Shown: piece by piece, positions 29,578-39,080 of the stretch
Position numbering within the stretch: the stretch's first letter is position 1
How the letters are laid out: each line of letters opens with the position of its first letter
Assembly (NCBI RefSeq): GCF_041248615.1
Contig: NZ_CP158426.1
Reading direction: 5' to 3' (one strand)
From: Escherichia coli
Lineage (GTDB): Bacteria > Pseudomonadota > Gammaproteobacteria > Enterobacterales > Enterobacteriaceae
Length of the DNA: 64,000 bases
The notes under the pieces: generated by a model
Database searches by the model: none
Told to the model about the DNA's origin: nothing
What the model saw: the letters and a program-made list of their open reading frames with translations, nothing else
Position numbers and translations under genes: made by a program

Positions 29578-30492
29578 TTACTGCAGCAGGCTGGAAACCA
29601 TGCTGGACATGCTGTTGGACTGTTTCAGCATGGTGATGCCGGTCTGCATCAGCACCTGCTGTTTGGTCATGTTGGACGCTTCCGTCGCGTAGTCGGTATC
29701 CATGATGTTACCGATAGCGACTTCGGTGTTGTCTTGCATACTGGTCAGGTTGTTGGCAGTGTCGTTCAGACGGTTGATAGAGGCACCCAGCTTGGACTGG
29801 ATCTGAGACACGTCATCCATCGCGGTAGAAATGCTGGTGATCATCTGGTTAGCCGAGCCAGACGCAGTCAGCTCAGTACCGCCAGAAACGCCTGCGGTGC
29901 CCGTGGTGTCAGCCTGATCCGCACTAAAGGAGTTGCTGATAGCAGAAAGATCAGTCACCAGGGTATTCAGCTGGCTTGAAATATTCACGGTCATGGTGTC
30001 GGAAGATTCCGCGCCCACCTGGAAAGTTACCGCGCTCTGGAACAGACCGTCAGTACCGGTGTTGCTGGTGCCGGAAACACCGAACAGGTTGGTGCCGCCG
30101 TAAGTGGTGTTTTGCAGCATGTCAGACATCTGCTGGCCCAGTTCGTCGTATTCGTCCTGCATCGCCTGCAGGTCGTCGTCGCTGTAGGTGCCGTTCGCTG
30201 CCTGAGTTGACAGGTCTTTCATACGACCCAGCACGTCAGACATTTCGTCGAACATGCTGTCGGCGGTTTGCAGCATCGCGGTGGCATCATTGATGTTGCT
30301 CAGCGCAACACCCATACCGCTGGACTGTGCTGTCAGACGGTTAGCAATTTGTTTGCCTGCGGCGTCATCGGCAGAAGAGTTAATCCGGTTACCTGTCGCC
30401 AGGCGTTCCATAGATGTAGACAGAGAAGAGCTGCTTTTGCTGATTGCATTAACGGCAGCCATTGAGGCGTTATTGGTGTTAATAGATAACAT
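29578..30492 (-). CDS. lafA: Lateral flagellin
   Basis: Start at MLSINTNNASM with RBS AAGGAG; conserved flagellin N and C termini; short (~305 aa). Confidence 0.9.
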   Translation of the reverse strand: MLSINTNNASMAAVNAISKSSSSLSTSMERLATGNRINSSADDAAGKQIANRLTAQSSGMGVALSNINDATAMLQTADSMFDEMSDVLGRMKDLSTQAANGTYSDDDLQAMQDEYDELGQQMSDMLQNTTYGGTNLFGVSGTSNTGTDGLFQSAVTFQVGAESSDTMTVNISSQLNTLVTDLSAISNSFSADQADTTGTAGVSGGTELTASGSANQMITSISTAMDDVSQIQSKLGASINRLNDTANNLTSMQDNTEVAIGNIMDTDYATEASNMTKQQVLMQTGITMLKQSNSMSSMVSSLLQ

Positions 30493-30926
30493 GATACTGC
30501 TCCTTGGGATTAATCGTTTTCGTTTCGATACCCTGTAAAAACGACACCTCAGGAGCAAACTTAAAATCGCCGTTAAAATTTTTTTGCCACGTATTATCCG
30601 ATGCCACTTTTAGCTAAAAAAAGCAGAGTTTAAATTCAGATAAAAAGATTATTAGCAATATCTGCCACATGGCCAGGTATCAAAATATGTCTTTATCAAA
30701 CGCTTGATATAGTTAAGATTGTCATCAATTATCGCGTTTTGTTCTCAATGTACTGATGCCAAAATTTACATTGCGTTGCAAATAGTACACATTTGGCTAT
30801 TGTACCTGTCCTGTCATTTCGTTACATTTCCACGCCATATAGTGATTAAGAATAATCCTATTACCGTAAAATATTAATTATCACGCAGAAAAATCATCTT
30901 CTCAGGGACGTATAAGACTGTGCTTT

Positions 30927-31820
30927 ATGCAAAGCACTATCAGGAAACATTTATCCCTTGCTAAGGTAAACTCAACTATGAGTATTATTATCAACAACTG
31001 GCGGATGGACCCGTCGCTTAATGCCTTAATACATTGCGAAACGGGTGAAACACGTCGTCTCGGCGAATACCATTTTATTTTGCTGGAAACATTAGCAAAA
31101 AATGCCGATGTGGTTTTATCGCGATCTTATTTATGTGCCGAAGTATGGAAGAACCGTATTGTCGGCGGAAATAGCCTGCCGACGGCGATCCATGCGTTGC
31201 GCGTTGCTATCGACGATGATGGCAAACAACAGAACATTATTAAAACAATTCCGAAGAAAGGTTACTTATGCAATAAAGAGTATGTATCTTTGCCGGAGTC
31301 ATCGCCTGCAGAAGCGCTGATTATTACCGACCAGATACAGGATACAGCCCCAGAAGAGATATCTTCGACTACACCGTATGTACCTGTTAGAAAAAAACAT
31401 AAAGGACTGATGGGGTTAGCGTTGGCCGCAGCTGTTATATTGGTTGGCTCAACCGTGGGGTATTCACACTTGAAAAGTACACCTGACGCTCCACAACTGG
31501 TAAAAGAGTCAATCAACAGTCCAAGAATAAAAATATTTCATCTTAGTTCTGGAAAAGAAAATAATTCCGCACCGTTACTGTCACAAACCCTCGCACCAGG
31601 AAAAGACAAACTCGATAATTTATTGTCAGCGCATAATATGACAATGACAACCTATTATAAATATGTTCGTAACCGACTGGAAAGTGATATTGTTCTGCAC
31701 AACCAGTGCAATGGTAGCTGGCAATTAACTTTTAATGTGGATAGCTGGCAGAATAGCGATATTAATAGCGCGATGTATCAGAATTTAGAGAAGTTGTTAA
31801 ATACTGTGCAGAAATGCTGA
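30927..31820 (+). CDS. Membrane-anchored winged-helix regulator (ToxR/CadC-like)
   Basis: N-terminal OmpR-type DNA-binding domain, single TM segment (LMGLALAAAVILVG), C-terminal periplasmic domain; AT-rich, low-GC gene. Confidence 0.6.
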   Translation: MQSTIRKHLSLAKVNSTMSIIINNWRMDPSLNALIHCETGETRRLGEYHFILLETLAKNADVVLSRSYLCAEVWKNRIVGGNSLPTAIHALRVAIDDDGKQQNIIKTIPKKGYLCNKEYVSLPESSPAEALIITDQIQDTAPEEISSTTPYVPVRKKHKGLMGLALAAAVILVGSTVGYSHLKSTPDAPQLVKESINSPRIKIFHLSSGKENNSAPLLSQTLAPGKDKLDNLLSAHNMTMTTYYKYVRNRLESDIVLHNQCNGSWQLTFNVDSWQNSDINSAMYQNLEKLLNTVQKC

Positions 31821-31835
31821 CGAGTGCCAATATAT

Positions 31836-31868
31836 GCCGGATGCGACGCTAAAGGCGTCTTATCCGGC
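31836..31868. repeat. REP-like palindromic element
   Basis: gccggatgcgacgctaaaggcgtcttatccggc. Confidence 0.55.
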
Positions 31869-31878
31869 ATACCGATAA

Positions 31879-38342: not shown

Positions 38343-39080
38343 TCACGAGCCGCGCAATAAGCGGTTGCCCGCGTCGCTGATATCTTCGGCGGTTTTCATC
38401 ATCTTGATCTGCGCTTCAAACTGGCGGTTCATGGCGATGGACGACATCATCTCGCTCACCGCCGAGACGTTACTGCCCTCCAGAAAACCGCCGCTAACTT
38501 TGATGTTTTCATCACGCTGGGCCGGAACGCCGTCGGCAGTTATCAGCATCCCTTCAGGATTTTTCGCCAGGTTAGCGACAGGAATATCCACCAGCTTCAG
38601 GCGGTCGATATCCATGGTTGCAGTCACGTCGCCGTCATCGGGCGTCACCGACAGCGTGCCGTCGCTGCCAAACGAAGCAATGGCGTTCGGCGGCAGAATG
38701 ATCGGGCCGTTATCCCCCAGCACCAGATTGCCGTCGATGGTCAGTTGCCCCTGGTCGTCCTGCTGAATGTTGCCGTTGCGGGTATACACTTCGTTGCCGT
38801 TTTTATCCTGCACCGCAATGTAACCCGCGCCCTGAATCGCCACGTCCAGCGGGCGTTCGGTTTTCTCCGCTACACCCGTGCTGTCGTTCACGCCGCTGGC
38901 CCCTTCCTGCGCCATATAGCGCGTGTCGAAGCCGCCGCCTTTCACCTTGTCGTTGGTCGCCATCGCCATGTCGGCGCGAAAACCGTTGGTGTTGACGTTC
39001 GCCAGGTTGTTGGCGCTAATCTGCTGCTCGTACAGGGTCTGAGAAGCACCGCTCAGGGCGGTATAAATCAGGCGGTCCAT
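38343..39080 (-). CDS. lfgF: Proximal rod protein FlgF homologue
   Basis: 245 aa rod family. Confidence 0.85.
   Translation of the reverse strand: MDRLIYTALSGASQTLYEQQISANNLANVNTNGFRADMAMATNDKVKGGGFDTRYMAQEGASGVNDSTGVAEKTERPLDVAIQGAGYIAVQDKNGNEVYTRNGNIQQDDQGQLTIDGNLVLGDNGPIILPPNAIASFGSDGTLSVTPDDGDVTATMDIDRLKLVDIPVANLAKNPEGMLITADGVPAQRDENIKVSGGFLEGSNVSAVSEMMSSIAMNRQFEAQIKMMKTAEDISDAGNRLLRGS

Follow-up and report, generated by a model that had tools for sequence, protein, structure and literature searches.

The window analysed here is a stretch of 64,000 nucleotides of Escherichia coli DNA (RefSeq assembly GCF_041248615.1, contig NZ_CP158426.1). It is the Flag-2 (lateral flagella) locus of this species, and the region is 100% identical to an E. 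coli chromosome in RefSeq on which the Flag-2 gene order is complete. The window and that record share the order lafU...lafA, lafZ, lafW-lfgL-lfgK. The gene under study, lafZ, lies in Flag-2 cluster 3, between lafW and lafA and divergent from lafA. The original prediction described a low-GC regulator gene divergent from a lateral flagellin gene across a 370-bp AT-rich region, starting at 30560. Divergence from the flagellin gene was borne out (667 bits on the NCBIfam LafA model), as was the low GC content, which is 41% in the gene and 35% in the spacer as compared to 54% in lafA and 59% in lafW. The position 30560, however, falls inside the lafA promoter, and because lafA starts at 30492 (not at 30558) and lafZ most likely at 30978, the intergenic region is 30493-30977, which is AT-rich as proposed but 485 bp rather than 370 bp long. 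The features that define the gene are as follows.

30978..31820, + strand: lafZ coding sequence (280 codons and a stop), encoding a membrane-tethered winged-helix regulator of transcription (the RefSeq CDS, WP_001521896.1)
30964..30970, + strand: AGGTAAA ribosome-binding site for lafZ, 7-8 nt before the ATG
30927..30977, + strand: in-frame upstream extension of the mechanical ORF, probably untranslated

An ORF at 30927..31820 (+) is present in the window and gives a reading of 297 aa. The ATG at 30978 is most likely the true start: it is the RefSeq start, its position is common to 48 of 48 family representatives, and the alignment with ToxR begins at residue 3 of the 280-aa protein. The AGGTAAA sequence is kept in E. 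coli, E. marmotae, Pseudocitrobacter and C. freundii. The upstream ATG at 30927 is not conserved in Pseudocitrobacter or Citrobacter, and the extension was found in none of the 48 family representatives.

Of the 280 residues of LafZ in the window, 278 are identical in the protein that E. coli strain 042 encodes at the lafZ position; the comparison used this protein and not record CAH19147.1 itself. The gene is thus lafZ, the already-named gene for a ToxR-like membrane-anchored regulator of E. coli Flag-2. It is said to have been named in strain 042, as a "putative transmembrane regulator", by Ren et al. in 2005 (J Bacteriol 187:1430), so the gene described here is a rediscovery. The same gene has the same place beside lafA and the same predicted role in strain 042, where Flag-2 cluster 3 is lafWZABCDEFSTU; the literature gives LafZ as a "putative transmembrane regulator" found in flag-2 only (De Maayer et al. 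2020, PMC6993521). Experiments on LafZ were not found in the searchable literature, and literature queries on what LafZ does, on H-NS at Flag-2 and on the expression of lafA by E. coli gave nothing relevant. What is new is that E. coli is without a small sensor-partner gene that comes after lafZ in most related bacteria.

The Flag-2 region was found in 1275 of 5426 complete E. coli genomes (roughly a quarter), ST131 among them. GC3 is 0.41 in lafZ as compared to 0.68-0.71 in its neighbours. Low GC is a family-wide trait, since lafZ is low relative to its neighbours in 78 of 80 loci.

Architecture of LafZ

The domains of LafZ were assigned by profile searches, hydropathy, family alignment and structure prediction, and map onto the gene as follows.

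30978..31277, + strand: OmpR/ToxR-type winged-helix DNA-binding domain, cytoplasmic (aa 1-100; Pfam PF00486)
31278..31403, + strand: variable cytoplasmic linker (aa 101-142), ending in RKKHK
31404..31463, + strand: single transmembrane segment (aa 143-162), predicted N-in/C-out
31464..31817, + strand: periplasmic domain (aa 163-280), predicted beta2-alpha-beta3-alpha fold of VtrA/ToxR type
31707..31709, + strand: codon of Cys244
31815..31817, + strand: codon of Cys280, the C-terminal residue

Each part of the originally proposed architecture, a winged helix joined to one transmembrane segment and a periplasmic domain, was recovered. The winged helix matches Pfam Trans_reg_C (PF00486) with E=1.4e-13 and 51 bits against a cutoff of 26, at aa 42-114 in the 297-aa reading. 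It is an N-terminal domain of OmpR/PhoB type with no receiver domain, and no other domain was found. It contains 18 residues that are invariant among 48 family representatives. The closest solved relative by sequence is the ToxR DNA-binding domain (8b4b, 3.7e-8), followed by that of CadC (5ju7, 2.3e-6). The linker is unalignable, varies in length within the family and has a high dN.

One hydrophobic stretch, GLMGLALAAAVILVGSTVG, has a Kyte-Doolittle value of 2.02, with RKKHK on its N side and 118 residues beyond its C side. A single hydropathy peak above 1.6 is present in 46 of 48 family members, and the mean number of K+R residues across the family is 3.0 before and 1.2 after the segment. By the positive-inside rule, LafZ is predicted to have one transmembrane segment with a cytoplasmic N terminus and a periplasmic C terminus.

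Pfam scans and HMM searches against PDB sequences gave nothing meaningful for the 118-residue periplasmic domain. Its predicted structure (AF2 pLDDT 90.9) has the elements in the order beta2-alpha-beta3-alpha, which is the order described for VtrA and ToxR, and by this model the domain has the VtrA/ToxR fold. Cys244 and Cys280 are each invariant in 48 of 48 sequences. The equivalent of Cys280 lies 0-3 residues from the C terminus, except in two of the 48 members that have C-terminal tails, and is the probable disulfide partner of Cys244. A C-terminal disulfide cysteine is a described trait of the co-component family, and the periplasmic pair of LafZ, with one cysteine at the C terminus, conforms to it.

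The partner gene and its absence from Escherichia

In 68 of 80 species-level relatives, a gene for a membrane-anchored protein of about 155 aa overlaps the 3' end of lafZ. This partner (about 150-160 aa) has an N-terminal hydrophobic helix, overlaps lafZ by about 20-26 nt, and was found in Citrobacter, Yersinia, enterobacterium strain LUAb1 and metagenome contigs. Neither Pfam nor an HMM search of PDB sequences gave a meaningful match to it; the best match of its structure model is VtrC, and the partner is accordingly modelled as a membrane-anchored, VtrC-like beta-barrel protein. The presence of such an overlapping partner in most relatives places the family among co-component cassettes of the VtrA/VtrC or ToxR/ToxS type. 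The original assignment to one-component sensors such as ToxR and CadC therefore stands as to architecture but not as to family, which is a two-gene cassette whose partner is missing in E. coli.

The partner gene is absent from all seven Escherichia/Pseudocitrobacter loci. Searches with tblastn using partner proteins gave no match in the window, and blastn gave none in 5,426 E. coli genomes. The gene for a membrane-anchored, lipocalin-like partner that co-component systems carry just downstream of the sensor gene, usually overlapping it, is absent from the window; its place is taken by a hairpin.

31833..31871: REP-type hairpin in the partner's place (dG -27.9 kcal/mol, z = -5.0)

The lafZ and lafW genes converge and are 58 bp apart, and this hairpin fills the space between them. 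It has a sub-threshold match to Rfam naRNA4 (REP-derived), besides which no RNA family was found in Rfam. A direct lafZ-REP-lafW junction is present in 1195 of 1272 E. coli genomes with the region. Strain 042 differs, with a RelE/HTH toxin-antitoxin pair between lafZ and lafW where the window has the REP hairpin only.

VtrA/VtrC, the bile-salt receptor of Vibrio parahaemolyticus (PDB 5KEV/5KEW; PMC4933562), belongs to the co-component superfamily of Kinch et al. 2022 (PMC9214523), and VtrA has the domain order of LafZ, with a winged helix, a transmembrane segment and a small beta2-alpha-beta3-alpha periplasmic domain. However, VtrA has no detectable sequence similarity to LafZ beyond the winged helix and no conserved cysteine pair, and its context is type III secretion, whereas that of lafZ is flagellar and, in E. 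coli, without a partner. ToxR has the DNA-binding domain closest to that of LafZ by sequence (E=3.7e-8) and, like LafZ, two periplasmic cysteines, one of them beside the C terminus. At about 294 aa, ToxR is also near LafZ in overall size. Its periplasmic sequence is unrelated to that of LafZ, the toxR and toxS frames do not overlap as lafZ and its partner do, and E. coli LafZ, unlike ToxR, is without a ToxS-like neighbour. In Yersinia pestis/pseudotuberculosis, the LafZ-family protein has 348 aa and is encoded in Flag-2 with an overlapping 148-aa partner. The periplasmic range 235-348 given for YP3283 matches this protein, and the YP3283/YP3282 cassette of Y. pseudotuberculosis, of unknown function and listed with no mention of flagella (Kinch et al. 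2022, PMC9214523), is probably the Yersinia LafZ orthologue cassette (locus tag BZ17_3283), as judged by length and range.

The missing partner, together with a Flag-2 that is silent or mutated in many strains, raises the question of whether E. coli LafZ is a decaying leftover that no longer signals, its gene becoming a pseudogene. EC958 gave no detectable LafA at either 28 or 37 C, lfgC is frameshifted in strain 042, and truncated LafZ variants occur in databases, for example as clusters of 257, 207 and 178 aa. Against this, dN/dS among E. coli, E. marmotae and Pseudocitrobacter, all partner-less, is 0.03-0.07 in the DNA-binding domain and 0.14-0.20 in the periplasmic domain, so the periplasmic domain is still under purifying selection in this clade. 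E. coli LafZ also keeps every invariant family residue, both cysteines included; the main cluster, of 280 aa, comprises 2,295 sequences; and lafZ is nearly full length in 1261 of the 1275 E. coli genomes with the region. Decay is therefore unlikely.

The lafA-lafZ intergenic region

No AT-rich stretch among the flagellar genes of the window is longer than the spacer between lafA and lafZ. Its features are as follows.

30493..30977: lafA-lafZ divergent intergenic region (485 bp, 35.1% GC)
30538..30564, - strand: sigma-28-like lafA promoter, TTAAGTTT-N11-GTCGTTTT
30637..30662: conserved block AGATAAAAAGATTATTAGCAATATCT, upstream of lafA and a candidate site for a regulator, kept from Escherichia to Citrobacter
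30765..30828: two conserved boxes, TTACATTGCGTTGCA (30766-30780) and TGTCATTTCGTTACA (30812-30826), kept in four taxa
30776-30781 and 30798-30803: TTGCAA and TATTGT, 16 nt apart, a weak candidate lafZ promoter flanked by TTACATTGCGTTGCA and TGTCATTTCGTTACA

The lafA promoter emerged only from the cross-species alignment; a search with the E. coli FliA consensus TAAAGTTT-N11-GCCGATAA, allowing up to three mismatches, gave nothing at lafA. Both of its boxes, TTAAGTTT and GTCGTTTT, are kept in five taxa, and the window contains no other exact match to the pair, which we assign provisionally to sigma-28. The block at 30637-30662 may be a regulator site upstream of lafA. Part of it, AAGATTnTnAnCAAT, has a single further copy in the window, 70 bp away at 30715-30729. 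The two boxes TTACATTGCGTTGCA and TGTCATTTCGTTACA form a repeat of their own, TTACATTnCGTTrCA; a third match to it, at 38809, falls within lfgF and was put down to chance. TTGCAA and TATTGT could form the lafZ promoter; a promoter scan instead gives 30704-30732 and 30827-30856. A sigma-54 box in the spacer was rejected because it is not conserved. Comparison of the lafA-lafZ and lafK-lfiM spacers for a common LafZ box gave only four shared AT-rich 9-mers, about the number expected by chance. The conserved boxes of the spacer could belong to other regulators or could simply be promoters. The spacer also contains a 52-aa ORF at 30719-30877, in a stretch that is only patchily conserved.

Proposed role of LafZ in Flag-2

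Conserved synteny, the conserved blocks of the spacer and the silence of Flag-2 in EC958 make it plausible that LafZ controls Flag-2 and that the AT-rich spacer is a site of silencing, perhaps by H-NS, as originally suggested. We propose that LafZ, with a ToxR-type winged helix in the cytoplasm, one transmembrane helix and a 118-aa periplasmic domain, would be stabilized on its periplasmic side by a Cys244-Cys280 disulfide. The state of this domain (its folding or redox state, its dimerization or its protection from proteolysis) would set the amount of active LafZ. The membrane-bound protein would then bind AT-rich Flag-2 DNA, most likely at the conserved blocks of the 485-bp spacer, and would there switch on transcription or lift silencing, as a layer added to the cascade of LafK/sigma-54 followed by LafS/sigma-28. 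EC958 does not express LafA in laboratory culture, in keeping with a system that depends on some specific input. Among the locus-specific proteins of Flag-2, only LafZ is a candidate envelope sensor. The explanation as a whole, in which the gene is lafZ of Flag-2 and encodes a membrane-tethered transcription factor, an orphaned co-component that controls Flag-2 through the spacer, is in our judgement probably correct.

The original prediction offered surface contact or viscosity as the signal; sensing of this kind by LafZ would be conjecture and drew no support from the present analysis. The solved relatives of LafZ sense bile salts or lipids, through a partner. VtrA needs VtrC, and ToxS stabilizes ToxR; by analogy, the partner-less E. 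coli LafZ might be weakly active or inactive. A stronger form of the proposal, in which E. coli LafZ is the naturally orphaned half of a VtrA/VtrC-type co-component sensor with all that follows from it, is more tentative, and we hold it to be possible but somewhat short of an even chance. The region between lafZ and lafW has been catalogued in Flag-2 comparative genomics as variable region VR2. If the proposal is true, the single hypothetical gene in VR2 of most Enterobacterales would be a conserved lipocalin-like, ligand-binding partner of LafZ and not cargo, and the switch for lateral flagella in these bacteria would be a lipid- or bile-type small molecule in the periplasm and not contact with a surface. 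LafZ of Escherichia and Pseudocitrobacter would act alone, through its disulfide/redox state or proteolysis, or else with a borrowed partner whose gene lies elsewhere (YqeJ or FidL, for example). Such rewiring could explain why E. coli Flag-2 looks silent in the laboratory; to our knowledge, no one has seen Flag-2 function in E. coli. Placing LafZ among the co-components also joins two literatures that do not cite each other here, the Flag-2 genomics that defined VR2 and the co-component paper.

A further question is whether LafZ mainly controls genes elsewhere, for adhesion, virulence or the envelope, as do ToxR, GrvA and YqeI. Co-component cassettes have been described as mobile two-gene units that control varied virulence traits, and the low GC of lafZ, seen in 78 of 80 loci, points to a module of separate history. 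Cassettes of lafZ plus partner lie outside flagellar loci in 20 of 80 species, mostly Erwinia and Pantoea, with flagellar genes absent nearby, so the family is not strictly tied to flagella. (An ORF downstream of the Erwinia cassette, considered as LafW, is not LafW.) However, the other 60 loci are flagellar, a flagellin gene that diverges from lafZ is found no more than 1.5 kb away in 50 of the 80, and the position between lafW and lafA is kept, together with the long conserved spacer, from Escherichia to Yersinia and Budvicia. ToxR-type regulators also commonly act on the adjacent gene, as in CadC-cadBA, PsaE-psaA and MarT-misL. A regulon that lies mainly elsewhere is thus improbable, and local control of Flag-2 is preferred.

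The reading of LafZ as a one-component pH or amino-acid sensor of CadC type is already contradicted and very improbable: E. coli CadC is likewise a membrane-tethered winged-helix regulator with a similar DNA-binding domain (second among solved relatives) and a periplasmic disulfide, several NCBI records are named "CadC family transcriptional regulator", and the top NCBIfam match of LafZ is the CadC model, but this match covers the winged helix only and scores 33.9 bits against a cutoff of 400, cadBA was not found near lafZ, and CadC has another genomic context, no VtrC-type partner and a much larger two-subdomain sensor, its solved periplasmic part having about 320 aa and a helical repeat subdomain as compared to 118 aa in LafZ.

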